From NCBI GenBank assembly GCA_964430265.1, contig CAYSEI010000002.1, forward strand, positions 20,769 to 84,768: a stretch of DNA of 64,000 bases. Direction: 5' to 3'. A model generated the notes under the pieces. It saw only the letters and a program-made list of their open reading frames with translations. It was not told where the DNA came from and did no database searches. The stretch's first letter is position 1. Each line of letters begins with the position of its first letter. Below are positions 7,328 through 57,189 of the stretch, in pieces. The translations under genes and the position numbers were made by a program. The stretch is from an uncultured Pseudomonadales bacterium (GTDB lineage: Bacteria > Patescibacteriota > Microgenomatia > UBA1400 > CAYXSR01).

Positions 7328-7365
7328 GTACAATTTAATAAAATATTAAAGAAGGGATTGCTGAT

Positions 7366-7752: not shown

Positions 7753-7818
7753 ATTATTAAATAGAAAATATTAAAGTTTTGTAGATTTAAAAGAACTTAA
7801 TTATCAAATAAGGGAAAA

Positions 7819-15666: not shown

Positions 15667-15673
15667 AAATTCA

Positions 15674-20219: not shown

Positions 20220-21266
20220 TTAATTAATAAAAGGGATTTTCTTTTTTAGGTCCAGCCATTTCCAACGCAAATTGTTGAGGGTTGTATAAATTTGGTATTT
20301 TGCCGGGTCCAAAATTAGGTCATAAGTACCCACAAATTCAATTAATTGAGGCTGATAGCCTTCTTTAAAACGGTGAAACCCATACCATGGATGGTCAGGG
20401 TCGGGATTAGGTCCAAGACTGCCCCACATGTCAAAGGTATGGCAGCCGATCTTTTTACCATATTTTATTACTTCCCACATCATTAGGTTAGACGGCATTT
20501 TTTTTCTATGTTTTCTGGAAGAGGCTCCATAAGGATAATAAATTACATTATTAAAAACAAAAATAACCCAAGTAACAACAGTTTCCCCTTCACATACTGC
20601 TTTAAAAAGTCGAGCAATTCCTTTTGGTTGTAATGTTTCCCACATTTGTTTATGATATTTTTGATTGTGAGCATAAAAACCTTGTCTGGATGTAGTTTTG
20701 CCCATTAGTTTTAAATATTCTTCAAAGGCTTGATCTGAATTATCTTCAACAATCTTAACACCGTTTCTTTTGGCATAGCGGACGTTGTAGCGTGTTTTTG
20801 ATTTCATATCCATCAAAATTTCTTCTTTGTCTTTAGTTAAATCAATTTGGAAAGTATAGTGTGTAAAATGAGGTCTGCCTTTTACAGCTCCTTGTTTCTT
20901 AAAAAATTTTTGGGTTTCTTCGAATTCAGGATTTGTTTGTTTTTGATCAGCAGGCTTGCCTATGTTTGGTTCAAATTTATAAAAAATACAACTTTCCTCA
21001 TTGCCTATTTTTTTTAATGCATTGATAAAATTTTCATTTATGGCATTGCATTTAGGAACATAAGCGATCTGATAATCAACTTTTGGTAGCGGGTGTAATG
21101 TAAACTGCAAACCATTTACGATTTTATCGTTTTCAAAAGCACCCAGTCTAATTGGCATAACACCGGTCTTTTTCCTGAATTCACCCCATTCCCAAGTTTG
21201 CAATGGATGATTAACAGTTTGATTAAAAGCTTCTTTTTCTTCTGGATAAATTTTGCGGACAATCAT
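20220..21266 (-). CDS. FemAB-family aminoacyltransferase (peptidoglycan interpeptide bridge formation).
   Basis: The N-terminal Q.WEWGEFRK and the C-terminal YYPYGASSRKHRK...MWEVIKYGKKIGCHTFDMWG match FemABX signatures. Confidence 0.65.
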   Translation of the reverse strand: MIVRKIYPEEKEAFNQTVNHPLQTWEWGEFRKKTGVMPIRLGAFENDKIVNGLQFTLHPLPKVDYQIAYVPKCNAINENFINALKKIGNEESCIFYKFEPNIGKPADQKQTNPEFEETQKFFKKQGAVKGRPHFTHYTFQIDLTKDKEEILMDMKSKTRYNVRYAKRNGVKIVEDNSDQAFEEYLKLMGKTTSRQGFYAHNQKYHKQMWETLQPKGIARLFKAVCEGETVVTWVIFVFNNVIYYPYGASSRKHRKKMPSNLMMWEVIKYGKKIGCHTFDMWGSLGPNPDPDHPWYGFHRFKEGYQPQLIEFVGTYDLILDPAKYQIYTTLNNLRWKWLDLKKKIPFIN

Positions 21267-23146: not shown

Positions 23147-24175
23147 ATGTTTGGTAAAAAAAATAAAAGTTTAATTTATATTATCTTAGCAATTATCCTC
23201 ATCCCTCTTTTCTATTTAGGAGGACGTTTTTTATACAAAAAAATAAAAGCACCACAATTGGCTTATTCAATCATCTCTGCTGATACTTCTGTTTTGGCAT
23301 CTGACGATAACCATACTAATTTTTTAATTTTAGGCACAGGCGGAGAAAATCATACATCGGGTGATTTAACAGACACTATTATTTTTACATCGATAAATAT
23401 TAAAACAGCAGATGTTGTGATGTTATCAATTCCTCGAGATATATGGTTAAAATCTTTGAAAGCAAAAATTAATACTGCTTATCATTATGGAAATGAAAGA
23501 GGTGAGGGATTTGAATTAATAAAAGAATCCATAAAAGAAATTACGGGACAGCCTGTTCATTATTCGGTTTTAATTGATTTTCAAGGGTTTGTTGAATTAA
23601 TAGATTTATTAAATGGGATTGAAGTTGACGTGGAAAACAGCTTTGACGACTACAAATATCCAGTTCCGGGAAAAGAAAATGCGGACTGTAACGGTGATCC
23701 GGAGTATCAGTGTCGCTATCAACACCTGCATTTTGAAAAAGGATTACAGCATATGGATGGTAAAAGAGCGCTGAAGTTTGTACGTTCGCGCAATGCAGAA
23801 GGAGATGAAGGGACAGATTTTGCCCGCAGTAAAAGGCAGCAAAAAGTAATGCTGGCAATCAAAAAGAAAATCTTGTCCTATAAAACTTTATTAAATCCAC
23901 AAAAGCTTTTGGAAATCAAAAAGAATTATGAAAAAAACGTCAAAATAGAACCACAACTAGATGAAAAGGAAATGGGTGCTTTAGTATCTCTTTTTAGAAA
24001 ATTTACCAAAGAGAATAAAGACTTGCAAACAGTAAACTTAGATACAGGAACGGAAGAGAATCCGGGCTTTTTAATCAATCCTCCAATTGAAGAATATGAA
24101 CAATGGGTTTTGGTTCCCCGCAGTGGAAATTGGAAAAATTTTCATCGAGAAATAGAAGAAAAAATTTTTCAGTAG
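23147..24175 (+). CDS. LytR-CpsA-Psr (LCP) family cell-wall glycopolymer phosphotransferase.
   Basis: An N-terminal TM anchor. DTIIFTSIN...VMLSIPRD...VHYSVLIDFQGF...ALKFVRSR motifs. Confidence 0.8.
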   Translation: MFGKKNKSLIYIILAIILIPLFYLGGRFLYKKIKAPQLAYSIISADTSVLASDDNHTNFLILGTGGENHTSGDLTDTIIFTSINIKTADVVMLSIPRDIWLKSLKAKINTAYHYGNERGEGFELIKESIKEITGQPVHYSVLIDFQGFVELIDLLNGIEVDVENSFDDYKYPVPGKENADCNGDPEYQCRYQHLHFEKGLQHMDGKRALKFVRSRNAEGDEGTDFARSKRQQKVMLAIKKKILSYKTLLNPQKLLEIKKNYEKNVKIEPQLDEKEMGALVSLFRKFTKENKDLQTVNLDTGTEENPGFLINPPIEEYEQWVLVPRSGNWKNFHREIEEKIFQ

Positions 24176-24193
24176 AGAAAAACAAAATTACAA

Positions 24194-25129
24194 ATGGCGA
24201 AAAACAAAAGAAAAATAGATTTTATTGGAATTGGTGCGCCGCGCAGTGGTTCTACATGGCTGGCTCAATGCTTATATGAACATCCAGAGATTGAATTTCC
24301 CGGCAAAAATACTGCAAAAAAACTGCATCCTTTTGATAAGGAAATAAATTTTTTTTGTGAAACTCTTTTAAGAAGCAGTTATTCACAGAAAAATCGTTAT
24401 TCAAAAGGAATTGATTGGTATCTTAATTTATTTGATTGGAAAAATACTGAAAGAATAAGGGGAGAGTTTAGTGTAGGGTACTTTGCTGATAAAAAAGCTC
24501 CTAAAAGAATAAAAAAGCATTTTCCTAAAATTAAACTAATAGCTATTTTGAGAAATCCCGTTGAAATGGTGTATTCAATTTATCATCATCTTTGTGCTTT
24601 AGTACACACAGAAATGCCTAAGAATTTTGAAACAGCTCTAGAGCAAGAAAAATATAAAAAATTACGTCTGCATTGGGGATTGTATTACAAACAACTTTCA
24701 TATTATTTAAAGTTTTTTGACCAAGATCAGTTTTGTATTGTTTTATTGGATGACGTGAAAAAAAGTCCTAAAAAAGTTGTGCAGCAAGTATATTCATTTT
24801 TAAACGTTGAATCTGATTTTCAACCTTCGGTTTTAACGCAAAAAGAAAATCAAGCTGTGAGGCCTAATTCAAAAATCTTACAAAGAGTTGGTTATAAAAT
24901 GCTAAAAGCTACAGAGAAGCTAGGGTTTAAAAGTGTTCACAACGAATTAAGCAGAAATAGGTTTCTTAAATACATTTACAACAGATATAATCTTAAAAAA
25001 CACAAATATCCTCATTTAAAATTTCAAACAAGAAAAAAACTTTTTAAATACTATAAAAAAGATATTGAAAAACTTGAAGTATTATTAGATCGTTCGTTAA
25101 ACGATTGGCTAAAATATAAAACAAATTAG
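24194..25129 (+). CDS. PAPS-dependent sulfotransferase family protein.
   Basis: 5'-PSB motif GAPRSGSTWL. 3'-PB-like LRNPVEMVYSIYHH. Confidence 0.8.
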   Translation: MAKNKRKIDFIGIGAPRSGSTWLAQCLYEHPEIEFPGKNTAKKLHPFDKEINFFCETLLRSSYSQKNRYSKGIDWYLNLFDWKNTERIRGEFSVGYFADKKAPKRIKKHFPKIKLIAILRNPVEMVYSIYHHLCALVHTEMPKNFETALEQEKYKKLRLHWGLYYKQLSYYLKFFDQDQFCIVLLDDVKKSPKKVVQQVYSFLNVESDFQPSVLTQKENQAVRPNSKILQRVGYKMLKATEKLGFKSVHNELSRNRFLKYIYNRYNLKKHKYPHLKFQTRKKLFKYYKKDIEKLEVLLDRSLNDWLKYKTN

Positions 25130-25139
25130 AAAGGGAAAT

Positions 25140-26333
25140 TTGTTTGCAGAAATAATAATATTTATAAGCGTCTTTTTTATTTATTATATTTTAGGCAATA
25201 ATATTAATACAGGCCACGATTTTTTTGTTCCTCTTGCAGAGGCTTTTTTAAAAGGACGGCTTTATGTTAATAAAATGGCTTATGAGTTACACGAAATGGT
25301 CTCACTGGAGGAAGTAAAAACAGGGATATATAAACAGGTTGCTGACGGAAGCAAAGGAATTTTTTATGTTATTTATCCGCCAATGCCGGCAATTTTATTG
25401 ATGCCTCTTGTTTTAATTTGGGGTCAAGATTTTAACCAAAGCCTTTTTTCCATGCTTATTTGTTCTTTGAGTTCAGTTTTTGCTTTTAGACTTTTTAAAT
25501 CACTCAATTTAAGCATAAAAAAAAGCTTTTGGCTCTTAGCTCTTTTAGTCTTTGGATCAATGCAGTGGTATCACGGAACAATAGGATCCTCTTGGTATCT
25601 TTCTTTGGCATGCGCAATGCTTTTTTTATGGATAGCAATTAGTCTGACCCTAAAAAATAAATCACTTATTTTAATTGGTTTATTTTTAGGATTTGCATAT
25701 TTATCTAGGTTTTCCGTTATATTAAGCTTTCCTTTTTTCTTGATTAACACTCAAAAATTTTGGTTTAAGAAAAAAGGATTTAAAATTAAGCCATTACTTA
25801 TGTTTTTTTCGGGAATATTTTTATGTTTAGCTATTTCTTTTTTATACAATTATTTGCGTTATGGAACAATCTGGCATATTGGATATCACTTACTTGAAAA
25901 ACGTTGGTACAATATTGCAAATGAATATGCAGACGGTTCATATAGTCTGAGTTATTGGCCTCGTCACATCAAAGCTTTATTCTGGAGTTTTCCGCATAAA
26001 ATTAATGGATTTCCCTTTTTTGAACCCAATTATCATTCAATGGCAATTTGGATAGTTATGCCGGCTGTGATTTTGGCATTTTGGGCTCCCTTTAAGAAAA
26101 AGATTGTTTGGAGTAGCTGGTTAGTAATTATTTTAATTGCCTTATCACATTTTTTTCACGGCGGAGTTGGTGCAACTCAATTTGGATATCGATATGCAAT
26201 GGATTACTTTCCATTTTTATTCATTCTTTTTGTGCAGGCAATAAAAAAGAAATTTTACTGGTGGCAAAAAGTATTGATTATATTGAGTATTATTATTAAT
26301 TTGTGGGGCGTATATTTTAGTTTCTGGAGATGA
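25140..26333 (+). CDS. Polytopic membrane protein, probable GT-C-like glycosyltransferase or accessory protein.
   Basis: About 10 TM segments. It sits in the GT-C array. No diagnostic motif was recognised. Confidence 0.4.
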   Translation: MFAEIIIFISVFFIYYILGNNINTGHDFFVPLAEAFLKGRLYVNKMAYELHEMVSLEEVKTGIYKQVADGSKGIFYVIYPPMPAILLMPLVLIWGQDFNQSLFSMLICSLSSVFAFRLFKSLNLSIKKSFWLLALLVFGSMQWYHGTIGSSWYLSLACAMLFLWIAISLTLKNKSLILIGLFLGFAYLSRFSVILSFPFFLINTQKFWFKKKGFKIKPLLMFFSGIFLCLAISFLYNYLRYGTIWHIGYHLLEKRWYNIANEYADGSYSLSYWPRHIKALFWSFPHKINGFPFFEPNYHSMAIWIVMPAVILAFWAPFKKKIVWSSWLVIILIALSHFFHGGVGATQFGYRYAMDYFPFLFILFVQAIKKKFYWWQKVLIILSIIINLWGVYFSFWR

Positions 26334-27835
26334 AAATAAACTACAAATATTTAACTTTTGAAGTGCTAATTCTAATTTTAATTCTTGGATTACCTTTGTT
26401 GCTAATGTATCAGAGTATAGGCAAAAAAGGACCAACAATTGATGAACAAAATACATATATTCCAATAGTAGAAAATTTAATTCAAGGAAATAAATATTAA
26501 AATATATCCAAGAGCTATTTTCATCCACCATTGTCTTTTTATATTTCCTCTTTGACCTCTAAAATTTTTAAAACAAAAACATCTAGAATTACAATGTTGT
26601 CTGTTTTTATAACATTAGGAGTATTTTTTTTCTATGTTTCTAAGGCTAGCTTTAATAAGCTAACGGCTTTTTTATTATTGTTAATATATGCTTGGTTTCC
26701 GGAAATTTTAGCTCATTCTCGCTTAATAACGCCTGATATGACATTAGCATGTACGACTTTTATTTATCTTTATTTCTTATATTTGCTTTTGCAAAAGCAA
26801 AACTGGAAAAGAACTTTGTTTACGGGGCTAAGTTTAGGACTGGCTTTTATAAGTAAATATACAGCTTTAATGTTGATCCCTATCTCTTTATTATTACTTT
26901 TTGTAAATTTAATAAAACCCAAAAACAATATAAAAATGAAAATTTTTAGTTTGTTTGTAGTAATAATAACTGCTTTGTTTGTTATTAATTTCAGTTATAA
27001 TTTTCAGCAAAGTTTTTCTTTACCTGAATTTGAAAGTAGAACTTTTCAAAGATTAGAATCAAATCTTATAACTAATAAATTATTAAAAACAACACCATCT
27101 TTATATTTAAAAGGCTTAGATTTTCAACTTTATCAGTCAAGTTTGGATAATAGAAGAAATTTTTTTATGCAGCAAAGATCGTCCAAAGGAATTCCTCAAT
27201 ATTTTATTGGAACTTTTTTATTTAAAACTCCTTTACCGCTGTTAATTTTATTCTCAGCTAATATTTTATTTATAATTTTTATAAGTAAGGAAAAAAACTC
27301 TTTGCATTTTTTAATTCCGGTTTTGTTCTTTTTTGTTTACTTTAGTTTTTTTAATAATTTAAATATTGGTTTTCGTTACTTACTGATGATTTATCCATTA
27401 CTTATTTTTAGTTTAGGGGAATTTTTTGATTACATTTGCAAACAAAAAAAACAAATTTTTAAAATTATTCTTTTTTTATTGATAGCTTGGAATATATTAG
27501 AAACAATCAAAATACACCCTCATTATTTAGCTTATGCTAATCAATTAGCAGGAGGACCTCAAAATGGATATAAAATTTGGGCAGATTCTTCATTAGACTG
27601 GTTTCAAGACAATGATGCTTTTGGTAGATATTTAGACAAGAAACAGATTGATATCCCAATTGATCCACAACATCCTATTTTAGGAAAATTTGCTGTAAGT
27701 GTTTTTTCAATGAATAAAGAGAATTATTACGAATATCAGTGGTTAAGAGATTTAGAAAAAAAGCCTGTTGATCAATATGGATATACATGGTTAATTTTTG
27801 ATATAACAAAAGAAGATTTAGGGAAAATAGATTAA
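26330..27835 (+). pseudogene. GT-C (ArnT/PMT_2-like) glycosyltransferase gene interrupted by a single in-frame TAA at 26498-26500. It is either a pseudogene, a sequencing error or a recoding site.
   Basis: A 56-aa upstream ORF (MKINYKYLTFEVLILILILGLPLLLMYQSIGKKGPTIDEQNTYIPIVENLIQGNKY) lies in the same frame as the 26531 ORF. Reading through the TAA gives ...GNKY*NISKSYFHPPLSFY..., which restores the canonical TM1, DE-loop and HPPL N-terminus of GT-C enzymes. The ATG at 26330 overlaps the upstream TGA stop (ATGA). Confidence 0.55.
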
Positions 27836-27849
27836 ATAAATACTAATAA

Positions 27850-29502
27850 ATGAATAAGAAAATAAGAATACTGATACTTTTAATTTTTTTTACTTTAGGT
27901 TTAGTTTTAAGATTGTATAAATTAGGGTTAATACCGCCCGGTACTAATTGGGATGAAACAGTCGTTGGTTATACCGGTTATTCAATTCTAAAAACTGGGA
28001 AAGATGAATGGGGGAAAAAAATACCTATTTTTACTAAAGGTTTTGGTGATTATCGTTCCGCGGTATATTCTTATCTAACGACTGTTCCTATTAAGATATT
28101 TGGATTAACGCCTTTTGCTATACGGTTTCCTGCAGCTGTTTTAGGTTCAACCGGAATAATTGCCTTTTATTTTTTAATAAAAAATTTATTTGAATTTTAT
28201 AACTTAAAGGGGAAATCAAAGAATATCGCTGTTATTGGTGCGTTTTTATTTACAATTAATCCTTGGAACTTCTTTTTTAGCCGTTATGGCTTTGATGTGA
28301 GTAGTTGTTTTATATTTGGATTGTTCTCACTGACGTTTGTTTTTTTATTTTTAAACAAAAAAAAATATCTGCATTTATTTTTTTCAATTATTTTTGCTTG
28401 TTTAAGCATATATAGCTATCATAATGCAAGAATTGTGATTCCTTTTGTTTTTTTATTTTTATTTGTACAGAATTTTTCTATATTTATTAAAAATAGAAAG
28501 CAAATAGCATTAGTTTTTTTAACGGGTATTCTTTTATTTTTGCCTTTTTTGATATATGTAAAAACAGGCTTTCTATCAATAAGAACAAAAGAGCTTTCAA
28601 TATTTTCTAATTATTGGAAAAAACATGAATTAGAAAAATTACTAGTAAAAAGCACATTTTTAAGAAGTTTTGCTTTTTTTTATAAATATTTTTTTTACTT
28701 TCAGGAAATATTTAAAAATATCTTAAGAAATCTTTCTTTAAAATTTCTTTTCTTAGGAGAGGATTTACATTATCGTTTTGGAATTAAATACTACGGAAGG
28801 TTTTTATATCCTAGTTTAATTTTTTTGTTTTTAGGACTTTTCAAAATATGGACCAGGAATAAAAAATTGTTTGCTTTTTTAACATCTTTTATTTTAGTAT
28901 CTACGTTGCCAGCGGCATTAACAGTAGACAGCCCTCATCCTTTAAGAGTATATTTTCTTTTAATTCCTTTATTAATAATCATAACTTTTGGTATTTATTA
29001 TTCATTTAAAGGAAAAGCTATTAAATTTAAGCGCAGATTCTTAACAGGTGCTTTTATAGTCTATATGTTGTTTTTATCTTTATATATAAATGCTTACTTT
29101 AATTTTTTTAATGAGGAAGCGGATCAAAATTGGCAGTATTTTTATAGAGAATTAGTAGAATCTATAGATAATCAGTATAAAGATTATAATAGGATTTTAT
29201 TTGATATTCATTGGGGACAACCACATATATTTATGTTTTTTTATCAAAAAATAGATCCTTTAATTGTACAAAAAGAAATGAACAGAAAGGATCAGCTTAG
29301 CGAATCTCGTGGGGTTGTTAGCAGATTTCAAAATATTCATTTCAAAGATGTCCATGAGAGTGATATATTAAATTGTCATAATTGTTTAATAATTGAAGAT
29401 GAAAAGAGAACAAAGTTAGAGAAAAATAAAGTTGTAAAGGAATTAGAAAACATAAAACTGAATAACGGAAATACTATTTTTTGGATATATAAAACGATAT
29501 GA
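27850..29502 (+). CDS. GT-C fold glycosyltransferase, family 39/83-like (ArnT/PMT_2).
   Basis: The first loop NWDETVVGYTGYSILKTGKDEWGKKIPIF, a polytopic N-terminal half and a C-terminal soluble region. Confidence 0.7.
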   Translation: MNKKIRILILLIFFTLGLVLRLYKLGLIPPGTNWDETVVGYTGYSILKTGKDEWGKKIPIFTKGFGDYRSAVYSYLTTVPIKIFGLTPFAIRFPAAVLGSTGIIAFYFLIKNLFEFYNLKGKSKNIAVIGAFLFTINPWNFFFSRYGFDVSSCFIFGLFSLTFVFLFLNKKKYLHLFFSIIFACLSIYSYHNARIVIPFVFLFLFVQNFSIFIKNRKQIALVFLTGILLFLPFLIYVKTGFLSIRTKELSIFSNYWKKHELEKLLVKSTFLRSFAFFYKYFFYFQEIFKNILRNLSLKFLFLGEDLHYRFGIKYYGRFLYPSLIFLFLGLFKIWTRNKKLFAFLTSFILVSTLPAALTVDSPHPLRVYFLLIPLLIIITFGIYYSFKGKAIKFKRRFLTGAFIVYMLFLSLYINAYFNFFNEEADQNWQYFYRELVESIDNQYKDYNRILFDIHWGQPHIFMFFYQKIDPLIVQKEMNRKDQLSESRGVVSRFQNIHFKDVHESDILNCHNCLIIEDEKRTKLEKNKVVKELENIKLNNGNTIFWIYKTI

Positions 29503-30743
29503 AAATTTGGATAAAAACTCTAGTTGTATTTGGAATTTGTTTGCTAAGTTTATTATTGCGTTTTAAAGTCTTTCCATACAAAACTCATTGGTCGGACATG
29601 TTTTTTTGGAAGGACTGGGGAAGAGGAATACTTGAATATGGTACTAAAGGTTTTTATAAACAATTCGGCTCAGATTATCTACCATTTTATCCGCTTGTTT
29701 TGGGTGTAGTTAAAACAATTTATAATTATACACACGAACTTCTTAATATAAAAGATATTTATTACTACAAATTTCCCGCGGCAATTTCCGATATTTTTTT
29801 TGGTTATTTAATTTTTAGATTTTTAAAGGAAGTAAAGAATTATAAAGCCGGAATTTTAGGAATGATTTTATTTCTTTTTAATCCCGCTGTATTTGCAAAC
29901 TCAAGTATGTGGGGGCAAGTGGATGTGATAGGTACTTTATTTTTATTTGCCGGTTTTTATCTTTTATATAAGAAGAAATATTGGGTATCCGGATTGTTTT
30001 TGGGGTTATCTTTAGTTACTAAAGCCTTGTATTTAATAGCTATCCCGTATTTATTTTTACTATTTTTTAGAAAAGAGGATTTTTACATAAATATACATAG
30101 GAAAATTCTTAAAAAATGTTTCTTAGTTTTTCTGGGAATATTAGTTTCAATAATAGTTATTACTTTGCCTTTTGTAGAAGGTGGTCTTTTTGCAGTTTTT
30201 AAGTTTTTGTTTGAACGCTATAAGATTATTAGTGAAAGATATCCTTATACTTCAGTAAATGCATTTAATTTTTGGGGATTGGTGGAAAAAGAATTCTGGC
30301 TTTCTGATAAAAGAGGACCTTCCTTTTTGACTTATAACAAATGGGGAACACTAATTACTCTTTTATTGATTGCAGCTGTTTATATAAAAGGTTTTTTAAA
30401 TGCAATAAGAAAAAAATGGTTTTATTCTTTAGTTTTGGGGATATCTTTATTATTTTATTCCAGTTTTTTATTTTTGACCCGGATGCATGAACGGCACTTT
30501 TTTTATGTTATTCCCTTTTTAGCAGTTGCTGCGGTTATTAAGCACAGATTAATAATTGCTTATTTAATTACTAGTTTAACTTACTTATTAAGTTTGCACT
30601 TTGCTCTGGAATATTATTATCAGGCCAAAGCATATGTTTTTTCGTCTTTGCAGATCAATTTAATCAGCGGAGCCAATGTACTAGTGTTTTTTTGGTTATT
30701 GTTTGAGTTTTTACTTTTGACAAAAAATGAAAAAAAAATATAA
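29499..30743 (+). CDS. GT-C-like polytopic membrane protein, paralog A of a three-member tandem family.
   Basis: Shares YKFPAAISDIFFG, YPYTSVNAFNFW and LFLTRMHERHFFY motifs with the next two ORFs. Confidence 0.6.
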   Translation: MKIWIKTLVVFGICLLSLLLRFKVFPYKTHWSDMFFWKDWGRGILEYGTKGFYKQFGSDYLPFYPLVLGVVKTIYNYTHELLNIKDIYYYKFPAAISDIFFGYLIFRFLKEVKNYKAGILGMILFLFNPAVFANSSMWGQVDVIGTLFLFAGFYLLYKKKYWVSGLFLGLSLVTKALYLIAIPYLFLLFFRKEDFYINIHRKILKKCFLVFLGILVSIIVITLPFVEGGLFAVFKFLFERYKIISERYPYTSVNAFNFWGLVEKEFWLSDKRGPSFLTYNKWGTLITLLLIAAVYIKGFLNAIRKKWFYSLVLGISLLFYSSFLFLTRMHERHFFYVIPFLAVAAVIKHRLIIAYLITSLTYLLSLHFALEYYYQAKAYVFSSLQINLISGANVLVFFWLLFEFLLLTKNEKKI

Positions 30744-31938
30744 AAAACTTCTTATTTATTTAATAGTTGGATCAGTTATTTTAGTTATCCGCTATATTCT
30801 CAGTTTAAGAAAATATAATCTAGACATCTTAAATCATGCAGTTTGGACAGAAAAAGCCTTAGCTGATGGATTAAAAGGGTATTATAAAAGAATATATTCT
30901 CCCTATGCAGAAGCAAACTATCCGCCTTTTGCAAACCTGCTTTTTTATTTGTCACATAAAACTTATAGGATGCTAGGTTATTCCGGAGGTTTGAATAATC
31001 TTTTGGCTGCTTTTTATAAAATTCCTTTGATAATTGCTGATTTAATAATTGTTTTTTTATTGTTTAATATTTTTAAAAATAAAAAGAAAAAATTTAAAAA
31101 ATATTTTTATCCTTTCTTTTTTTTAATTAATATTGCTTTAGTTTATAACAGTGTTTACTGGGGGCAGTTGGAAAGTGTGATAACCCTGTTTTGTATGCTT
31201 TCCTTATATTTTCTTTTTAAAGAACCCAATTTATTAGCCTATGTTTTTTTTGCTTTGGCAGTTCTGACAAAACAGACAGCACTGGTTTTAACGCCGCTGT
31301 TTTTTTTACTCAGCTTAAAAAAACTTAATATAAAAAAAACAATTGTAGGAATGGGAATAATATATTTGATCATTTTTATCTTTTTTATTCCTTTTACAGG
31401 CAAAATTGATTTTTTTTATCCAGTGAGATTTTATTTGCAAACTTCAGGCGGACAACTTCACCAGAATCAAGCGACCGTAAATGCTTTTAATTTCTGGTTT
31501 TTATTAGGACAAAACAAAATTTCAGACAGCACCACCCTTTGGAAGTTGATTGATTATCGTCTGGTTTCAATTCTGATATGTTTATTATTTTTCTTGCCGA
31601 TATTAATAAAAGTATATAATAAAAAGCCTAAAATAATTTCAGTTTTTAAAGCTGCAGGACTTTTATTTTACATAGTCTTTCTTTTTTTAACCCGGATGCA
31701 TGAAAGGCATCTTTATCCTGCATTAGCGTTTTTAATTCCCGGTTTAAATTCAATTATTAGTCTATTATTGTATGTTATAATTTCATTTATACATTTTTTT
31801 AATATGGATTTTGTTTGGCAGGAAATGATGGCAGATCCTATACCTTCAACAATTTTTAAAGGTAAAATAATGGCAGGGATTCTTTTAGCAATGTTCGTTT
31901 ATTTTTATACAAATTTTTTGATAAGAAAAGAAAAATGA
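30727..31938 (+). CDS. GT-C-like polytopic membrane protein, paralog B.
   Basis: FYKIPLIIADL, QATVNAFNFW and LFLTRMHERHLYPAL motifs. Confidence 0.6.
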   Translation: MKKKYKKLLIYLIVGSVILVIRYILSLRKYNLDILNHAVWTEKALADGLKGYYKRIYSPYAEANYPPFANLLFYLSHKTYRMLGYSGGLNNLLAAFYKIPLIIADLIIVFLLFNIFKNKKKKFKKYFYPFFFLINIALVYNSVYWGQLESVITLFCMLSLYFLFKEPNLLAYVFFALAVLTKQTALVLTPLFFLLSLKKLNIKKTIVGMGIIYLIIFIFFIPFTGKIDFFYPVRFYLQTSGGQLHQNQATVNAFNFWFLLGQNKISDSTTLWKLIDYRLVSILICLLFFLPILIKVYNKKPKIISVFKAAGLLFYIVFLFLTRMHERHLYPALAFLIPGLNSIISLLLYVIISFIHFFNMDFVWQEMMADPIPSTIFKGKIMAGILLAMFVYFYTNFLIRKEK

Positions 31939-34406
31939 TCTTATGGGTTTTAGGTATTAGCTTCTTATTTCGTTTGTTTATTGCTCAATATGGCACTTTG
32001 CAACTGGATATGAATGCTTTTATTTATTGGAGCAACCGTCTGATTCAAGTAAATTGGACTAGTTTTTATGAAGTCTGGTGTGATTATTTACCTACGTATT
32101 TATATATTCTTGCAGGTTTAGGCTATTTAAAGAATTTTTTCGTTTCCGTTGGAATTAATCTACCGGAATTTGTAATTTATAAATTGCCTTCGATTTTTGC
32201 AGACATCGGTATGGGTTGGATGATTCATAAAATATTTAAGCAAAATAATAAAAAAAAGCTGGGAATAATTGCTGCGCTTGTTTATTTGCTAAACCCGGCT
32301 ATATTTGGCAATTCAACTTTATGGGGACAAGCAGATAGTTTATTTGCTTTTGCAACTCTATTAAGTTTTTATCTTTATTATAAAAAAAATTATTTATCTG
32401 CCAGTATGTTATTGGCGGCTACAAGTTTACTTAAACCTTTAGGATTTTTATTGGTACCAGTTTTTGTTTTTGATCTTTGGAAAAAAGAGAAAATAAAAGA
32501 AATAATCTATTCCGGTACAGTTTTTATTCTTTTTTCTTTTCTGCTTTTTTTGCCTTTTTCCAGTGGAAACATGTTAAATTTTATAATTTCTAGATTTTCA
32601 CAAACCTTTAACCAGTACCCTTATACTACTCTTAATGCTTTTAATTTCTGGCAGTTTCTTGATATGAACTGGGTTAAAGACTCGCTTAAGTTTATTGCGA
32701 TGAGCTATCAAAACTGGGGGATAATATTGTTTGCGCCTTTTTATTTTACTTTTTTAAAGCAGTTTTCCCAACAAAAAAGTATTTTTAAAAAGAGTTTAAT
32801 AATCGGTTTGGTTTTCTATTTTAATTTTTTGTTTACCACCCGAATGCATGAAAGACACTTGTTTACTGCCCTGCCTTTTTTACTGCTAGGAATGGGAGAA
32901 GATAAAACAATCGGATTTTTTTATGTTTTAGCTTCTTTAACTTACAGTTTGAACCTTTATTATGCCTGGCGTTCAATTGAAAAAAGGAATTTTGTTTTAA
33001 GCAGTTTTTTAATTAAAACACTTTCTTTAACAAACATTTTAAACGCAATGGCTTTATTTTTAAAAAATTCATTTGCTTTTATTAAAAACAATTGTGAAAA
33101 TTTATGCAGTAAAATATCTATTCTAGTACAGAGAATTGGATTAAAATCCAAACAAAAAAAATTAAATTATGAGAATATATTTTTATTAATTTTTGTTTTG
33201 TTTATTTTGTTTACCCGCTTTTATCAACTGGGTTATCCGCAAGACTATATTTATGATGAGGTTTATCATGCATTTACTGCCGGAGAAATGGCGGAAGGCA
33301 ATGTTAAAGCATGGGAATGGTGGAATAATGCACCGGAAGGCTTTGCATATGAATGGACCCATCCTCATCTTGCTAAGATTCTTATGTCTTTAGGAATCAA
33401 GGTTTTTGGTAATAATTCGTTCGGATGGCGGTTTGGTTCTGCTGTTTTTGGAACCGGAGTAATATTATTAACCTATTTGTTAGGTAAAGAAATATTTAAA
33501 AACAAAAAAATTGCTGTTGTTGCTGCTGTTCTGTTTTCTTTGGACGGAATGCTTTTAACAATGTCAAGAATTGGAATGACTGACGTTTATCTGGTATTTT
33601 TTATCCTTTTGACAATTTTATTATCCCTTAAAAAAAGAATATTTTTAGCATCCGTCAGTTTGGGAATGACAATCGGAGCCAAATGGACAGGGATTTATTT
33701 AATTCCCATAATAGGGTTAATATTAATTTGGAAGCAAGAAAAACATGACATCTTCAGTAAAAGCCTTTTAAAAAACATTTTGACATTTGTGTTTATAACA
33801 CCACTGGTTTATACAGCAACATACTTGCCTTTTTTTCTTACAGAACACACATTAACTCAGTTTTTTGAATTACAAAAAAGCATGTGGGGATATCATACAA
33901 AGCTAAAAGCAACCCACGGGTTTCAATCAGAAGCATATACTTGGCCGTTTATGATCAGACCTGTCTGGTTTTGGGTAGATTATCAAAAAAATAAAATAGC
34001 CAATATTTATAATTTAGGTAATCCTTTACTTTGGTGGAGTAGTTTAACAATTTTGCCAATATATATTTATCGTAGTATTGAAAAATATATGGAAAAAAAG
34101 AAAAAGAACATGCTTATTTTAATACCTGCATATTTTGTGTTCTGGGTTCCTTGGATTTTTTCACCCCGAGTTATGTTTTTGCATCATTATCTTCCAGCAC
34201 TGCCGTTTTTGTTTCTTATGAATGCGTGGTTTTGGGTTAAAGAGATAAAAGAATTAGTAACTGAAAATAAAACCTATTATTTAATTACCCTAACTTATTT
34301 GGCCATTATATTTATTACCTTTTTATATTTTTTACCGATTTATATAGGAATTCCTCTGCCAAAAAATCGCCTTGATTGGTGGTTTTGGTTTTCAACTTGG
34401 AAGTAA
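31935..34406 (+). CDS. Fusion protein: an N-terminal paralog-C GT-C domain fused to a C-terminal PMT-family (GT39) protein O-mannosyltransferase-like domain.
   Basis: The N-terminal half has IYKLPSIFADIG, YPYTTLNAFNFW and LFTTRMHERHLF. The C-terminal half has DEVYHAF...THPHLAKIL...FSLDGMLLTMSRIGMTD, typical of the PMT family, and a PMT_4TMC-like tail YHTKLKATHGFQSEAYTWPF. Confidence 0.75.
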   Translation: MILWVLGISFLFRLFIAQYGTLQLDMNAFIYWSNRLIQVNWTSFYEVWCDYLPTYLYILAGLGYLKNFFVSVGINLPEFVIYKLPSIFADIGMGWMIHKIFKQNNKKKLGIIAALVYLLNPAIFGNSTLWGQADSLFAFATLLSFYLYYKKNYLSASMLLAATSLLKPLGFLLVPVFVFDLWKKEKIKEIIYSGTVFILFSFLLFLPFSSGNMLNFIISRFSQTFNQYPYTTLNAFNFWQFLDMNWVKDSLKFIAMSYQNWGIILFAPFYFTFLKQFSQQKSIFKKSLIIGLVFYFNFLFTTRMHERHLFTALPFLLLGMGEDKTIGFFYVLASLTYSLNLYYAWRSIEKRNFVLSSFLIKTLSLTNILNAMALFLKNSFAFIKNNCENLCSKISILVQRIGLKSKQKKLNYENIFLLIFVLFILFTRFYQLGYPQDYIYDEVYHAFTAGEMAEGNVKAWEWWNNAPEGFAYEWTHPHLAKILMSLGIKVFGNNSFGWRFGSAVFGTGVILLTYLLGKEIFKNKKIAVVAAVLFSLDGMLLTMSRIGMTDVYLVFFILLTILLSLKKRIFLASVSLGMTIGAKWTGIYLIPIIGLILIWKQEKHDIFSKSLLKNILTFVFITPLVYTATYLPFFLTEHTLTQFFELQKSMWGYHTKLKATHGFQSEAYTWPFMIRPVWFWVDYQKNKIANIYNLGNPLLWWSSLTILPIYIYRSIEKYMEKKKKNMLILIPAYFVFWVPWIFSPRVMFLHHYLPALPFLFLMNAWFWVKEIKELVTENKTYYLITLTYLAIIFITFLYFLPIYIGIPLPKNRLDWWFWFSTWK

Positions 34407-34410
34407 AGCC

Positions 34411-35013
34411 TTAAAACATTAAACCCAGAGCCATTAATAATGCGCCACCAATAGCCAATAAAATGGTTGGTGAAACAATGCCTGCTTCCGGCATTTCTTG
34501 CTGCGGTTCTACAAACTCGGGAGAAGGAGAAGCTTGAGCAATAAATACGCTTTCTTCCGGTGTTGGTTCAGGAGTTGGAGAAGGGCTTGGGTTTGGTTCC
34601 TCTGACGGTGATAAACTGGGTGATGAAGAGGGGGATATGTTTGGCGAAGGTGTTGGTGATGGACTTGGAGAGGGGGATGGCGACGGAGAAGGATTTAATG
34701 ATGGGATTGGACTCGGTGATGGTGATGGAGAGGGGGTTAATGAGGGACTTGGATTGGGTGAAATAGATGGAGAAGGTGATGGAAGAAGAGAAGGTGAGGG
34801 GTTGGGTTGACCGACTGTAAAAGATATTTCGCAGGTTCCGTCAGCTTGGTAAAATGTTTCCGGTTCTTTGGGTGCTTCACTGACTGCTGGCTTTGGTGAT
34901 TCTTCCGGAAGTTTCTTTGATTGATAAAGTTTAAAAGCAGTATAAGCAGCAACAACTGCTAAAACAATAGTTACTGTAATAATACTAATACTTAATACTT
35001 TGTTTTTATTCAT
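34411..35013 (-). CDS. Ser/Pro-rich repeat surface protein with a C-terminal sorting signal (MPEAG-IVSPT + TM).
   Basis: An N-terminal signal anchor. A tract of about 90 aa made of (N)PSPSxS repeats. The C-terminus EMPEAGIVSPTILLAIGGALLMALGLMF. Confidence 0.65.
   Translation of the reverse strand: MNKNKVLSISIITVTIVLAVVAAYTAFKLYQSKKLPEESPKPAVSEAPKEPETFYQADGTCEISFTVGQPNPSPSLLPSPSPSISPNPSPSLTPSPSPSPSPIPSLNPSPSPSPSPSPSPTPSPNISPSSSPSLSPSEEPNPSPSPTPEPTPEESVFIAQASPSPEFVEPQQEMPEAGIVSPTILLAIGGALLMALGLMF
34560..34800. repeat. Degenerate short tandem repeats encoding the (PSPS)n tract.
   Basis: Repeated ggtgatgg/ggagaggg-type units on the plus strand. The region lies inside the 34411-35013 CDS. Confidence 0.55.
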
Positions 35014-35015
35014 AT

Positions 35016-36359
35016 TTAATTACCCGATTTACTATTCCAGCCACCTGCCTTACCCCAATCTGTGCATAGAGGAAATCCTTCAGTTGCACAAGCTCTGCAC
35101 TGAACAACATATTCACCTGCTCTTGACGGCACTGTTAAAGTGGCAGGAACACTTTGTCCTAGATTATCACTGTCTTCAGCAATATCTGTGGCAAATTCAA
35201 CTGTTTGTGTATTTCCTTCTTCAGTAATAAAATAACGGAAATCATAAACATTTGTAGCGTTGTAGGATACATTTAATGAATTGTGTTTACAAACCAGTTC
35301 AATTTCATCCCCAAACTGGTATTCTTCTTTGACCGGAGAATATTCTAAATTATCACATACAAAGTTTTGTTCTAGTTCTAAGGAGAGAGAATTACTACAG
35401 GCGGTACAAGCAGTTGTTGCTGTATTACAATGTCCCCCCGGATTACCGGTACACCATAAATTTTTCTGATCAAAGACATTAGCAATAACAGTATATGTGC
35501 CAGGCTTTAAATTGGAAGTATCCCAAGTAACTTGGTTATCAGATTCATTAGGATCAGAAATTTTCTGCCATGAAGCCTTGCAAAAATCTCCGGTATCAGT
35601 AGTGTAATGAAAAGTTGTTTTTTGCAATTGACCTTCAGGATCACTGATGGTAGCAGTAAGCAATTTTTGATTGTCTCCTTCACCTGTGTTTGTCACACTT
35701 AAGTTTGTACAGTCAGGTGGTTGATTTGCAGGAGGTTCTATCCACATCCACCAAGTTTTAAGATTTTTTTCTTGATTATGACTATGGTTAAAACTAAAGC
35801 AATCTAAATAGTTATCATCATCATTGTCTGGAGTTTCCCATCCAGGATCCCAGGAATAGTCACCTCTTTTGGCATTAAGATCACCTTCATTGTCCGCACA
35901 TAACCACCAAAATCCTTCTTCAGAGTTTTCGGCTGCTGAAGGTGGAGCATATCTGCCTATTTCAGAACGCATGGGATGAAGATAAGAGCGACTACCCCCA
36001 CAGGAAAAATCAGCATCACCATCTTCGTAAAATCTTCCATCTTCATTTGTTTGTTTTAGTTTACACCACTGGGTATCACTGCAAGCATCCTCATTTTCAT
36101 AACCGCCACAACCTCCGTCTGTATTAGTTTTATCTTTATTTAGCATCATAAACTTTTCATCAGTAATTGGAAAAAAGGTTTCTGTTGCATTATCTTTATT
36201 CTTCATTAAGTTGGTATCGCATTTGTTTACACAGTTTGCTGCTCCTTCTTTACAAATCCATGCCCATCCGGTCCATTCCCAATAAGCAAAAGCAGAATGA
36301 GGTTTAAATATGAAAAAGAAGAAGATTAAAAAAAATGGTAAGTATCTTAATTTTTTCAT
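35016..36359 (-). CDS. Secreted Cys/Trp-rich protein with an Ig-like domain. Possibly an adhesin.
   Basis: A signal peptide MKKLRYLPFFLIFFFFIFKPHSAFA. About 28 Cys residues. An Ig/PKD-like segment NLKPGTYTVIANVFD. Confidence 0.6.
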   Translation of the reverse strand: MKKLRYLPFFLIFFFFIFKPHSAFAYWEWTGWAWICKEGAANCVNKCDTNLMKNKDNATETFFPITDEKFMMLNKDKTNTDGGCGGYENEDACSDTQWCKLKQTNEDGRFYEDGDADFSCGGSRSYLHPMRSEIGRYAPPSAAENSEEGFWWLCADNEGDLNAKRGDYSWDPGWETPDNDDDNYLDCFSFNHSHNQEKNLKTWWMWIEPPANQPPDCTNLSVTNTGEGDNQKLLTATISDPEGQLQKTTFHYTTDTGDFCKASWQKISDPNESDNQVTWDTSNLKPGTYTVIANVFDQKNLWCTGNPGGHCNTATTACTACSNSLSLELEQNFVCDNLEYSPVKEEYQFGDEIELVCKHNSLNVSYNATNVYDFRYFITEEGNTQTVEFATDIAEDSDNLGQSVPATLTVPSRAGEYVVQCRACATEGFPLCTDWGKAGGWNSKSGN

Positions 36360-36360
36360 T

Positions 36361-37530
36361 TTATTTAATTCTTTTTATTAAGTAATAACAACTGATATAT
36401 ATATCATCATTCACTTCAATATCATCGTCTAAATATTCACCGTCATAAACAGGAGCTATTTCGTATTCACCTATATTCATTGTTTTTGCTGTGTTTTTTA
36501 ATTCTTCATTTTGGCTATTATAAGAGTCGTTCCCGATATTTTCTTCAAAAGCAACAGTATAATCACTATTTTGAGAAGTTAATTCTTGTTTTTTTTGCTC
36601 ACAAAGTTCAGAAAAGTTTTCTCTGTTTTCAGCTTTTTGTTTAATATCTTCCAATACGTTTTGAGTTTCTTGTTTTAATTGTTCTACCGGACTTATTGGT
36701 GGTTTAACGTTCCAAAAGCATATTCGACATTGATCTACCCAGGCAGAGCTTTCATCAACAGTTTTTGTTTTGATTAAAGCTGGATCGGCTTGAGATATTG
36801 GTTTTACTTGCTTTTCACTTTCTTGTTCTTGTTGAGAGTCTTCTTTTTGTTCTAAAGTATTATTCTGATTTTTATTCTGAGTTTCTTGAATATAATTTTC
36901 ATTTTTACTGAATAAGAAAGAGAAATTCATTTTGTTTTTTAAAATAAAGAAAAAAATTGCAATTAAAATAAGAGTTATTAGTAAGGGTAATAGAAAAATA
37001 ATTTTAGGTATACCTTTTGATTTTTGTTTTTCAGGTGTTTTAATATCATTTGGGGAAGTGTTATCGTTGTTCTGAATTTTGTGTGGTTTCTGAGGTGTTT
37101 CTAATTCCTTGTCTTGATTACTTTGTTTATCAGGTGATATTTTGTCATTTTGTATATTGTTTGATTCTGTTTTTGAGGTTTCCGGATTTTCCTTTGGAAC
37201 AGTAGAATCAATTCCTTCTTTTTCAATTTGTTTATCTACAAAGTTATTAGATACACTTTTATTATTAATAGGTTTTGTTACTGGTTCTGAGTTTTTTTTG
37301 CTCTTGTTTGATTTTTTTTTATTATGCCCTTCCGATGTTTCAGAGTCGGTTTTATTAGTAGAATTATCAAATGTATTTTCCATATTTTTATTCATAGGCT
37401 TAGGAGGCTCTGTTATTTTTTGCCCATTATCTGGGTTAGATTTTAGACTTGAATTTATTGCTTTCTGTGCCTGCTCTTCAAGATTAGATAATGAGTTATT
37501 TGAATTATTTGTTTCTTTTTGTTTATTCAT
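36361..37530 (-). CDS. Low-complexity N/K/Q/S/E-rich protein with a single central TM helix.
   Basis: A central IPKIIFLLPLLITLILIAIFFFILK helix. The compositional bias creates an antisense ORF, which is rejected. Confidence 0.5.
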   Translation of the reverse strand: MNKQKETNNSNNSLSNLEEQAQKAINSSLKSNPDNGQKITEPPKPMNKNMENTFDNSTNKTDSETSEGHNKKKSNKSKKNSEPVTKPINNKSVSNNFVDKQIEKEGIDSTVPKENPETSKTESNNIQNDKISPDKQSNQDKELETPQKPHKIQNNDNTSPNDIKTPEKQKSKGIPKIIFLLPLLITLILIAIFFFILKNKMNFSFLFSKNENYIQETQNKNQNNTLEQKEDSQQEQESEKQVKPISQADPALIKTKTVDESSAWVDQCRICFWNVKPPISPVEQLKQETQNVLEDIKQKAENRENFSELCEQKKQELTSQNSDYTVAFEENIGNDSYNSQNEELKNTAKTMNIGEYEIAPVYDGEYLDDDIEVNDDIYISCYYLIKRIK

Positions 37531-37542
37531 TATTTAGCTTAA

Positions 37543-38976: not shown

Positions 38977-39436
38977 TTTGATCTTCGCTTTCTGTTTCTT
39001 GTTCAGTATTTGATTCGTTAGTCTCTTCAGTCTCATTTTGATTTTCCGTGTCTTCCTCTGCTAGTGTTTCCTCTTCTCCTTCTTGTTGATTGTTTTCTGT
39101 TTCTGCTTCTGCTTTGTTGTTTTGTTCTGCACTTGGAGAAGAACTAAGATCTATAAATTCGCTTGAGGCAGTAGATTCCTCATTACTGAGTTCCAGGTTT
39201 TCTATGGAAACAAGCTGTTTTACTGTATCCAATTTACCTTCGGTGATATGTCTTTTTTGTTTAAGTGTGTCAATTGTTGTTGTACTGAGTTTGGGATCTA
39301 TGGGTTTAATTAATTTTTCCACATCTTCTGGTATTTCAGGATTTGTCAAAGTAATATAAATTTCCAATCCAACCCAGATGAAAATTGTGATAAAGGTTAG
39401 GATAGCAGCAGTAATTATTTTCTTATTTTTTTTCAT
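38969..39436 (-). CDS. Bitopic protein with an N-terminal TM helix and an acidic low-complexity ectodomain. Possibly a PilP-like pilus accessory protein.
   Basis: An N-terminal TM anchor. An E/T/N-rich C-terminus. A 4-nt overlap with the PilO-like gene. Confidence 0.45.
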   Translation of the reverse strand: MKKNKKIITAAILTFITIFIWVGLEIYITLTNPEIPEDVEKLIKPIDPKLSTTTIDTLKQKRHITEGKLDTVKQLVSIENLELSNEESTASSEFIDLSSSPSAEQNNKAEAETENNQQEGEEETLAEEDTENQNETEETNESNTEQETESEDQNE

Positions 39437-40053
39437 TTTTCATACCAATATAAGTAACCGGTTATATTTAATTTTAGTATATTTTGATCAGAAGTGTCTT
39501 TTGAAGAAAAAGAAAAACTTTCTAATTGATAAATTCGTCGTAAATTTTCAATTTCGGAAATAAAATTTACCAGGTTTTGATATTCACCACTAGCTATGAA
39601 AGTATAACTAAGTTTATTGAGTTTAGATTCTGTTTGTTCTATATTAGAAGATTGAATTGCCTGAAATCCTTCTGTTGATCCAGTTTCTAATGCTACACTT
39701 TGTTCTTTTGCTAAAAGTGCGATTTTTTTTAAAGCAGAAATAAAATAGATTTTTTCGGGCAAGGCTTCGTTTAAATAAATAAAGTTTGGTTTTAATAAAT
39801 TATAATTTTTTTCAGCCTCTTCCAATTGACTAATTTTTGTACTAAATTTCTGACTGATTTCTTGCTTTCTTTTTATTTTGTTTTGCAGATCAGCAATTGT
39901 TCTAACAGTCGGTCTAATGGCGACTAAAGTGAAAAAAGAAATTACAAATAGGGTTAAAGCGATTTCCAATGTTGCTTTAGTAATCGGGTTTTCATAAACT
40001 CGACTTATTTTATCTAAATATCCTTGTGTGTATTTTTTGTAATCCCAGTCCAT
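39433..40053 (-). CDS. PilO-like type IV pilus assembly protein.
   Basis: A short cytoplasmic N-terminus, a single TM, a coiled-coil segment and then an alpha/beta domain. It lies immediately downstream of a PilN-like gene. Confidence 0.45.
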   Translation of the reverse strand: MDWDYKKYTQGYLDKISRVYENPITKATLEIALTLFVISFFTLVAIRPTVRTIADLQNKIKRKQEISQKFSTKISQLEEAEKNYNLLKPNFIYLNEALPEKIYFISALKKIALLAKEQSVALETGSTEGFQAIQSSNIEQTESKLNKLSYTFIASGEYQNLVNFISEIENLRRIYQLESFSFSSKDTSDQNILKLNITGYLYWYEK

Positions 40054-40054
40054 T

Positions 40055-57186: not shown

Positions 57187-57189
57187 AGT

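Follow-up and report, generated by a model that had tools for sequence, protein, structure and literature searches.

A candidate surface-glycosylation operon in a Microgenomates bacterium, with an ALG6/PIG-M-like module joined to a protein O-mannosyltransferase module

What is made by a bacterium that encodes seven membrane-embedded glycosyltransferase modules in a row behind a single cell-wall ligase? The question is raised by a stretch of 64,000 nucleotides (contig CAYSEI010000002.1, positions 20,769 to 84,768 of the forward strand; hereafter the window, in whose numbering all coordinates are given) from an uncultured bacterium placed in the Microgenomatia, which are part of the candidate phyla radiation (CPR). 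CPR bacteria are uncultivated episymbionts whose surface chemistry is little known. Positions 23147-34406 of the plus strand hold a single operon of eight open reading frames (ORFs) spanning 11.3 kb, which runs from the gene of an LCP (LytR-CpsA-Psr) ligase through a sulfotransferase gene and six further ORFs with seven modules of the glycosyltransferase C fold (GT-C), and which ends in a gene that joins two such modules in one protein. A preliminary description, made from the sequence alone, had noted seven or more GT-C enzymes at this place. The ORFs do lie on the plus strand at the positions that it gave, and a dense run of enzymes of the polyprenyl-phosphate-sugar type (GT-C) downstream of the LCP ligase is supported by Pfam, profile and fold matches; the count has to be corrected to six ORFs with seven modules, and a stop codon interrupts one of the genes. 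None of the enzymes is of a new kind, and databases already tag them as GT39; the terminal fusion is widespread yet unstudied. Our literature searches found no paper on PMT/GT39 enzymes, sulfotransferases or an ALG6-like/PMT fusion in the CPR.

The fusion protein and its paralogs

The last gene of the operon (31935-34406, +) encodes a protein of 823 amino acids. Its C-terminal part (residues 410-823; 33162-34406) matches the Pfam family PMT (protein O-mannosyltransferase; PF02366) at residues 419-601 with 61.9 bits (cut-off 22.7; E = 8.6e-17) and the family PMT_4TMC (PF16192) at residues 640-822 with 110.8 bits (cut-off 32.4; E = 8.1e-32). Both scores exceed the Pfam cut-offs, in agreement with the earlier proposal that a full PMT domain is fused here to the third of three related proteins. 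Residues R428, D441, E442 and R499 are invariant in 38 full-length relatives. The DE motif formed by D441 and E442 aligns with that of Pmt4 from Chaetomium (CtPmt4) and R499 aligns with R138 of yeast Pmt1, while R428 is presumably the equivalent of Pmt1 R64, judging from its position in the first transmembrane (TM) segment. Loss of the DE motif in related sequences had been named as a sign that would speak against a PMT; the motif is retained in all 38. No MIR domain is hit in the fusion protein, in which only about 40 residues separate the PMT and PMT_4TMC matches. Bacterial Pmt enzymes likewise lack this domain.

The fold is in agreement with these matches. The model of the fusion has a predicted local distance difference test (pLDDT) value of 88.8, and Foldseek pairs it with CtPmt4 (PDB entry 9i5k; E = 1.8e-11, TM-score on the target, TMt, 0.68). 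Sequence and model together characterize the C-terminal half as a predicted PMT of family GT39 that has no MIR domain and in which the DE motif is invariant. The N-terminal half matches ALG6, Gpi14 and PimE with TMt values of 0.60-0.67 (PimE, 9dm7_A: TMt 0.67, E = 2.2e-3). The two halves are connected by a basic linker (residues 402-409; 33138-33161) that is predicted to be disordered and is the only segment of the model with a pLDDT below 50. The topology of the fusion was judged only from how charged residues are distributed in the linker and the DE loop: the stretch 370-408 contains seven Lys or Arg residues compared with one Asp or Glu, and the DE-containing loop that follows is acidic, which would fit a cytoplasmic linker and two active sites that both face outward. 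Compared with the known GT39 enzymes (yeast Pmt1, Pmt2 and Pmt4 and the actinobacterial Pmt, such as Rv1002c of Mycobacterium tuberculosis), the module shares the PMT and PMT_4TMC domains, the DE motif in the first outward loop, the conserved arginines and the fold. It differs from them in being fused or adjacent to a GT-C of another family and in occurring in the CPR and Phycisphaerae, not in Actinobacteria.

The N-terminal module of the fusion (residues 1 to about 401; 31935-33137, +) belongs together with the products of the two preceding genes, paralog 1 (29499-30743, +) and paralog 2 (30727-31938, +). The three show 29-31% pairwise identity, and the blocks NAFNFW and TRMHERH are invariant in all of them. 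Other signature blocks that had been described as common to the three are less constant: YPYT does not occur in the second paralog, and in the first SD stands in place of the AD of the other two. These proteins had been left without a named glycosyltransferase family. A PDB search with the single sequence of paralog 1 gave no match, and a profile of the family (A2, 48 sequences) was needed for success. This profile matches GPI (glycosylphosphatidylinositol) mannosyltransferase I (PIG-M/Gpi14) with an E-value of 2.6e-14, over profile positions 84-254 only, and yeast ALG6 with an E-value of 1.5e-10 along almost the whole length; among the PDB chains of PimE it matches none at E-values of up to 10. 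In the profile alignment the nearly invariant D33 and W40 of paralog 1 fall on D69 and W76 of ALG6, the RMHER block falls on VHEK and NAFNFW falls on NFW. The Asp equivalent to ALG6 D69 does not vary among the three paralogs, has a conservation of at least 90% in the 48 family members and is present as an invariant D25 in the 38 fusions, where W32, R303, H305, E306 and R307 of the N-terminal module are invariant as well. ALG6 D69 and Gpi14 D39 are the proposed catalytic bases of their enzymes (PMC12653191).

The AlphaFold2 model of paralog 1 is of high confidence (pLDDT 94.9, predicted TM-score, pTM, 0.93). Its top Foldseek match in the PDB is ALG6 (6snh_X; E = 1.1e-5, TM-score on the query, TMq, 0.69), with Gpi14 (9wno_A) at a TMq of 0.66, after which come STT3, ALG3 and PIG-U (8imx_U and 7wld_U). 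The Pfam matches are spread over several families. Paralog 2 scores 29.5 bits against GT87 (PF09594, gathering cut-off 25 bits), the N-terminal module of the fusion scores 19.1 bits and paralog 1 has no hit, while Alg6_Alg8 (PF03155) is found in none of the three at E-values of up to 0.01. Over the 48 family members the same E-value limit gives GT87 in 25, PMT_2 in eight, Alg6_Alg8 in four and PIG-U in two. Profile and model thus place the family within the GT57/GT50/GT87 clan, probably not as a clean member of any single one of them. A match to a non-glycosyltransferase family would have spoken against the earlier interpretation; the paralogs are glycosyltransferase-like and not members of such a family, match ALG6, PIG-M and PimE by profile and fold and keep the catalytic Asp.

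The best profile and fold matches are with yeast ALG6 (GT57) and Gpi14/PIG-M (GT50), with which the Asp in the first external loop and the H-E-R/K block can be aligned. Unlike these enzymes, the window proteins are bacterial, have about 12 predicted helices compared with the 14 of ALG6 and are without a Pbn1-like partner. The DxD motif of PIG-M is not present in the paralogs, which have a single conserved Asp (sDm, lDi or lDm) and no second Asp at position +2. PimE of mycobacteria (DUF2029, GT87) is a bacterial, polyprenyl-phosphate-mannose-dependent enzyme. It resembles the window proteins in fold (9dm7), and half of the family has weak GT87 hits, with paralog 2 above the cut-off; it differs in that the family profile does not find it in the PDB and in that paralog 1 and the fusion module stay below the Pfam cut-off.

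The ALG6/PIG-M-like family is large, with 18,292 representative clusters (at 50% identity) at E-values of up to 0.001 and 3,843 at E-values of up to 1e-30. It comprises free-standing proteins of about 400 residues, tandem double modules and module-PMT fusions, and the module is N-terminal to the PMT in every PMT fusion examined. Among the longer proteins (878-1161 residues), P0313 contains two GT-C-type regions (an Alg6_Alg8-type match at 76-220 and GT87 at 557-797), and P0309 and P0311 carry an ALG6-like module in their C-terminal part, while most of the rest of these two proteins is without an assignment. P0381 and P0410 (1271-1288 residues) have an additional N-terminal region of about 250 residues in front of the module-PMT arrangement. 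The database labels are limited to 'glycosyltransferase family 39 protein' or 'Gpi18-like', in JGI 'Gpi18-like mannosyltransferase'.

Distribution of fused and split forms

Full-length relatives of the fusion (about 780-880 residues) gave 857 matches, and the best 120 of these 857 cover 92-100% of the query, nearly all of them at least 97%. The named organisms among the full-length relatives belong to Woesebacteria or to the Microgenomates or Patescibacteria group. In a scan of one genome per species, a relative is encoded in at least 579 genomes, including Woesebacteria, Daviesbacteria, Levybacteria and Blackburnbacteria. Phycisphaerae/Planctomycetota have full-length relatives too, at 31-33% identity and on contigs of 1.3 and 5.4 Mb.

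For comparison of the genomic context, 87 loci were retrieved and scanned for ORFs and with hidden Markov models (HMMs); 84 of them carry the fusion or the corresponding gene pair. The ALG6-like and PMT modules are fused in Woesebacteria-type genomes and split into two neighbouring genes, which often overlap, in Daviesbacteria, Levybacteria, HR37 and one Phycisphaerae genome. Whether fused or split, the order is always ALG6-like and then PMT, and in a rough neighbour-joining tree the two forms are interspersed. This pattern is a Rosetta-stone sign that the two modules work together. Outside the CPR, the fusion or the adjacent pair is seen at 31-37% identity in five loci of Phycisphaerae/Planctomycetota (L038, L039, L041, L047 and L054) and in bacterium HR37 (L068). 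Two Phycisphaerae loci were examined, in which the pair lies among unrelated neighbours with no LCP gene nearby. As the pair occurs there without LCP or other glycan genes, it appears to act as a functional unit by itself. Its presence outside the CPR reflects either ancient inheritance or transfer between phyla.

The three paralogs of the window are related to each other in a different way from what their tandem arrangement had suggested. They are indeed three consecutive related genes. Each of them has its own ortholog, in the same order and at 45-50% identity, in the closest relatives L001-L003 (45-46% for paralog 2), and in the tree, a phylogeny that the preliminary description had itself called for, they fall into three separate clades, of which that of paralog 2 is deep; more distant genomes carry only the fusion or the split pair. 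On these sequence comparisons the paralogs are old lineages, not recent duplicates.

According to Lombard, the GT-C enzymes of the endoplasmic reticulum (ER) lumen have only very distant prokaryotic relatives, which bear PMT or DUF2029 domains (PMC4973528). The present family belongs to this grey zone, within which its profile matches to PIG-M and ALG6 are unusually strong, and it is physically coupled to a PMT. In sequence it lies nearer to the eukaryotic ER-lumen enzymes than to PimE, and it therefore also bears on how the eukaryotic N-glycan and GPI pathways arose (compare PMC4973528). A far-reaching reading would be that the ALG6-like and PMT modules together make up, in nearly all Microgenomates, an autonomous apparatus for protein O-glycosylation in two steps, and that the ALG6-like module is the prokaryotic sister of the eukaryotic ER-lumen GT-C enzymes (ALG6/ALG8 and PIG-M). 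We regard this as distinctly unlikely; if true, it would mean that ER-lumen GT-C enzymes, long thought to be specific to eukaryotes, arose from a PMT-coupled bacterial enzyme.

Possible roles of the operon

The first gene of the operon (23147-24175, +) encodes an LCP glycopolymer transferase (PF03816, 119.3 bits, E = 2e-34; TIGR00350, 92.3 bits with a cut-off of 62.3, E = 3.5e-26), and most CPR loci have an LCP gene immediately in front of the fusion or gene pair. From here to the fusion the genes are tightly packed, with ATGA overlaps at 26330/26333, 29499/29502 and 31935/31938, a 17 bp overlap at 30727/30743 and gaps of 10-18 bp otherwise. Since all junctions either overlap or leave gaps of at most 18 bp, the genes are taken as one operon. 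A scan for promoters and terminators found sites no more commonly than in shuffled sequence and gives no evidence for internal transcription units. The operon diverges from the gene of a UvrD-type helicase and converges on a minus-strand gene 4 bp away. The gene order in the CPR loci is UvrD, LCP, in some cases a GT-C of 397 residues, the fusion, a small protein, a protein with fn3 and Big_13 domains, PilO-PilN, MurJ and HrcA-GrpE-DnaK. The locus is bracketed by genes for a FemAB-type peptidyltransferase (20220-21266, -) and a MurJ flippase (40994-42697, +), in relatives too, which therefore places the operon in a conserved cell-wall neighbourhood.

The convergent neighbour (34411-35013, -) encodes a candidate acceptor protein of 200 residues, with an N-terminal TM anchor, about 100 residues made up almost purely of Ser/Pro repeats and, at the C-terminus, an MPEAG motif followed by a hydrophobic tail. 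A second candidate acceptor is the surface protein with fn3 and Big_13 domains (37543-39036, -), the C-terminus of which consists of a SPSPQPSPSPSP tract, then VPETG, a TM segment and KKQ; this protein is kept downstream in nearly all CPR loci. In related loci the first gene after the PMT module is rich in Ser, Pro and Thr in 30 of 72 cases (six of 781 for the other genes), and in 23 of the 72 it additionally has an LPxxG tail (one of 781). These counts are to be read as conserved adjacency and not as independent events, because the loci are syntenic relatives.

Together these features suggest that the operon serves a two-step or multi-step protein O-glycosylation at the outer face of the cytoplasmic membrane, with polyprenyl-phosphate-linked sugars as donors, a proposal to which we give an even chance. 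All characterized GT39 enzymes are, to our knowledge, protein O-mannosyltransferases. In the proposed scheme the GT39 PMT module would prime Ser or Thr residues of exported, Ser/Pro/Thr-rich proteins with LPxxG tails by adding a first hexose, probably mannose, and the products of the neighbouring downstream genes would be among the acceptors. The second sugar would come from the ALG6/PIG-M/PimE-like module at the N-terminus of the fusion, and further residues from the two free-standing paralogs, probably together with the 397-residue GT-C of the operon, with each enzyme forming a single linkage. Through the LCP enzyme, encoded first in the operon, the glycosylation would be coupled to the wall. 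The scheme builds on what the sequences and models show, namely the domain identities, folds, conserved catalytic residues, operon structure, occurrence of fused and split forms and synteny; we infer which sugar is donated, which protein accepts it, in what order the enzymes act and whether the product is sulfated. A bifunctional GT-C located between an LCP ligase and Ser/Pro-rich wall-anchored proteins is a concrete candidate for surface glycosylation in the CPR, and would extend PMT-type O-glycosylation beyond Actinobacteria.

Several observations weigh against this proposal. The fusion scores 92.9 bits against the NCBIfam Pmt equivalog (PrMnsylTfPmt), far below the cut-off of 800, and the relative orientation of its two modules in the model is unreliable (pTM 0.62). 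No polyprenyl-phosphate-mannose synthase was identified in the window, where the GT2 at 56425-57186 is unspecific, and no sortase gene was recognized anywhere in it. The neighbourhood from UvrD to DnaK is syntenic across genomes, so that the adjacency of Ser/Pro-rich genes may reflect slow rearrangement instead of function. Furthermore, an LCP enzyme, a WecA-like primase and a polyprenyl-phosphoribose synthase within the same window would fit a wall polysaccharide equally well. In that alternative, for which mycobacterial arabinogalactan provides the precedent, a polyprenyl-pyrophosphate primer made by the WecA-like enzyme would be extended outside the membrane by all of the GT-C modules, including the PMT-like one, and the LCP enzyme would ligate the product to peptidoglycan. 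The position of the LCP gene, first in the operon and, in most CPR loci, just ahead of the fusion or pair, the flanking FemAB and MurJ genes and the presence in the window of a WecA/MraY-like GT4, further GT-C genes and a UbiA enzyme (228.9 bits against the decaprenyl-phosphate phosphoribosyltransferase model, cut-off 234) are all as expected for such a polymer. Against it stand the restriction of the characterized GT39 enzymes to protein acceptors, the ALG6-like/PMT pairs of Phycisphaerae that occur without LCP and the Ser/Pro-rich LPxxG proteins that are the conserved downstream neighbours. On balance we think a wall glycopolymer rather unlikely, though it is the main rival of the proposal.

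The same neighbours could also be read in the manner of Actinomyces oris, where LcpA glycosylates the LPXTG protein GspA (PMC6381275): a glycan would be assembled by the GT-C enzymes on a polyprenyl-pyrophosphate carrier and transferred en bloc by the LCP enzyme to the neighbouring sortase substrate. Here too an LCP gene, GT-C genes and genes of Ser/Pro-rich LPxxG proteins lie next to each other. The resemblance to LcpA-GspA protein glycosylation and to LCP-dependent wall-polymer ligation is in the co-location of LCP with glycan enzymes and LPxxG-type surface proteins; the window differs in that its glycan enzymes are of GT-C/PMT types that would act outside the membrane. We consider this route very unlikely, as it leaves the intact and conserved catalytic site of the PMT unexplained and links LCP to the acceptor by synteny only; nor was a sortase gene found in the window. 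The least probable of the alternatives weighed here concerns the fusion itself, whose N-terminal module could be a non-catalytic scaffold or a pseudo-dimer partner of the PMT, as PIG-U is in the GPI transamidase. PIG-U has the same fold, as the Foldseek matches of paralog 1 show, and is hit by two of the 48 family members in Pfam; PMTs moreover function as dimers (structures 6p25 and 9i5k), and the yeast enzymes require dimerization. The Asp at the position of ALG6 D69 and the R-H-E-R block are invariant, both in the 38 fusions and in the free-standing paralogs, which speaks against a non-catalytic role. PIG-U, unlike the N-terminal module, has lost its acidic motif and has SSW in its place (PMC12653191).

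Further genes of the operon and the window

The region had been described as an island. It is real as a gene run and is composite, consisting of a conserved syntenic core (LCP, the 397-residue ORF, the paralogs and the fusion) and lineage-specific insertions. Its GC content is 26-28% compared with about 31-33%. Horizontal acquisition of the whole island, which the low GC content might suggest, was rejected, because relatives share the gene order of the core and because membrane proteins rich in Phe, Ile and Lys are expected to have AT-rich codons.

The core ORF of 397 residues (25140-26333, +) encodes a polytopic protein without a Pfam hit, and it was counted as a GT-C solely from a remote profile match. 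Aligned with hhalign, the profile of its family (A4, 32 relatives) matches that of the paralogs with a probability of 96.3% (E = 1.7e-9, 262 columns), in agreement with membership of the same clan, while a PDB search with the family profile gave chance matches only. Its orthologs adjoin LCP or the fusion in about 40 loci.

Two PMT_2-type GT-C genes lie between this ORF and the paralogs. The first had been taken to start at 26531, and the match to PMT_2 (57.6 bits, E = 2e-15) begins at residue 1 of that ORF (26531-27835), which suggested that an N-terminus was missing. The true start is the ATG at 26330, which overlaps the stop codon of the preceding gene and opens 56 codons in the same frame up to an in-frame TAA (26498-26500), after which 434 codons remain open. 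The reconstructed protein of 501 residues (26330-27835, +) is colinear with an intact homolog of 523 residues (L046:4952-6523) over residues 11-497 (40% identity, E = 8e-109). The alignment takes in the first-loop motif (TIDEQN/TIDEHN) and places the TAA opposite an Asp. The gene thus carries a single nonsense codon and could be a pseudogene of recent origin, a variant within the population or an error in the assembly. That the TAA is recoded in a programmed way was considered and rejected, since nothing speaks in its favour and code 11 gives clean reading frames elsewhere in the window. The second gene (27850-29502, +) encodes a protein of 550 residues that matches PMT_2 with 34 bits (E = 4e-8) and, weakly, Agl23/TIGR03663. 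The acidic first-loop motifs of these PMT_2/ArnT-like (GT83-type) proteins are TIDEQN in the first and NWDETV in the second. Both genes are missing from the closest relatives L001-L003 and are lineage-specific additions.

The sulfotransferase gene (24194-25129, +) is likewise a lineage-specific addition to the operon, as it is missing from all 87 scanned loci. Its product is a cytoplasmic sulfotransferase of the type that uses 3'-phosphoadenosine-5'-phosphosulfate (PAPS) (PF00685, 77.6 bits, E = 1e-21; PF13469, E = 1e-15), with both the 5'-phosphosulfate-binding motif (PRSGSTW) and the 3'-phosphate-binding motif (RNPVEMVYS; RNP...S) present. Its sequence contains neither a signal peptide nor a TM segment, and without an export signal the enzyme would have to act on a cytoplasmic intermediate. 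No genes for PAPS synthesis (cysC, cysN/cysD) are found among the scanned ORFs of the 64 kb window. Sulfation of the glycan is a possibility, raised solely by the presence of this cytoplasmic enzyme. Homologs of the sulfotransferase occur in other CPR lineages and in Nanoarchaeota. Behind each of two close ones (L085:8001-10305 and L086:8001-10338, 52-54% identity) lies an overlapping gene that encodes a polytopic membrane protein of 462-476 residues, for which Pfam gives no hit and the window contains no homolog. The pair in L086 lies near a cluster of DUF134, FeMo-cofactor-like, cation-efflux and CbiA/Fer4 ATPase genes, and the same cluster is present at 6818-10770 of the window.

Beyond the operon, the two candidate acceptors belong to a minus-strand run of surface-protein genes (34411-40639) that encodes the (S/P)n protein, a Cys-rich secreted protein of 447 residues, a low-complexity protein of 389 residues rich in Asn, Lys, Gln and Glu, the fn3/Big_13 protein, PilO and PilN.

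On the other side, a minus-strand cluster (11842-17161) encodes the UbiA enzyme, the WecA/MraY-like GT4 (12720-13805), a membrane protein of 136 residues, a PMT_2 GT-C and a membrane protein of 495 residues without a Pfam hit; two GT-C-type genes, upstream of the operon, occupy 14191-17161. Three-component systems for extracytoplasmic pentofuranose transfer consist of a polyprenyl-phosphoribose synthase, a flippase and a GT-C (PMC11127046). This cluster resembles them, as well as the mycobacterial arabinan pathway, in having a UbiA-type phosphoribosyltransferase beside a PMT_2 GT-C, and the logic of a lipid-linked donor and a GT-C is common to both. It differs in lying apart from the operon, about 7 kb away and on the other strand, and no epimerase or MATE flippase was identified there. 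Finally, two genes of the monogalactosyldiacylglycerol (MGDG) synthase/GT28 type, for which the best NCBIfam match is diglucosyl-diacylglycerol synthase, surround a GT2 of 253 residues at 55289-58326 (-) and look like a glycolipid cluster.

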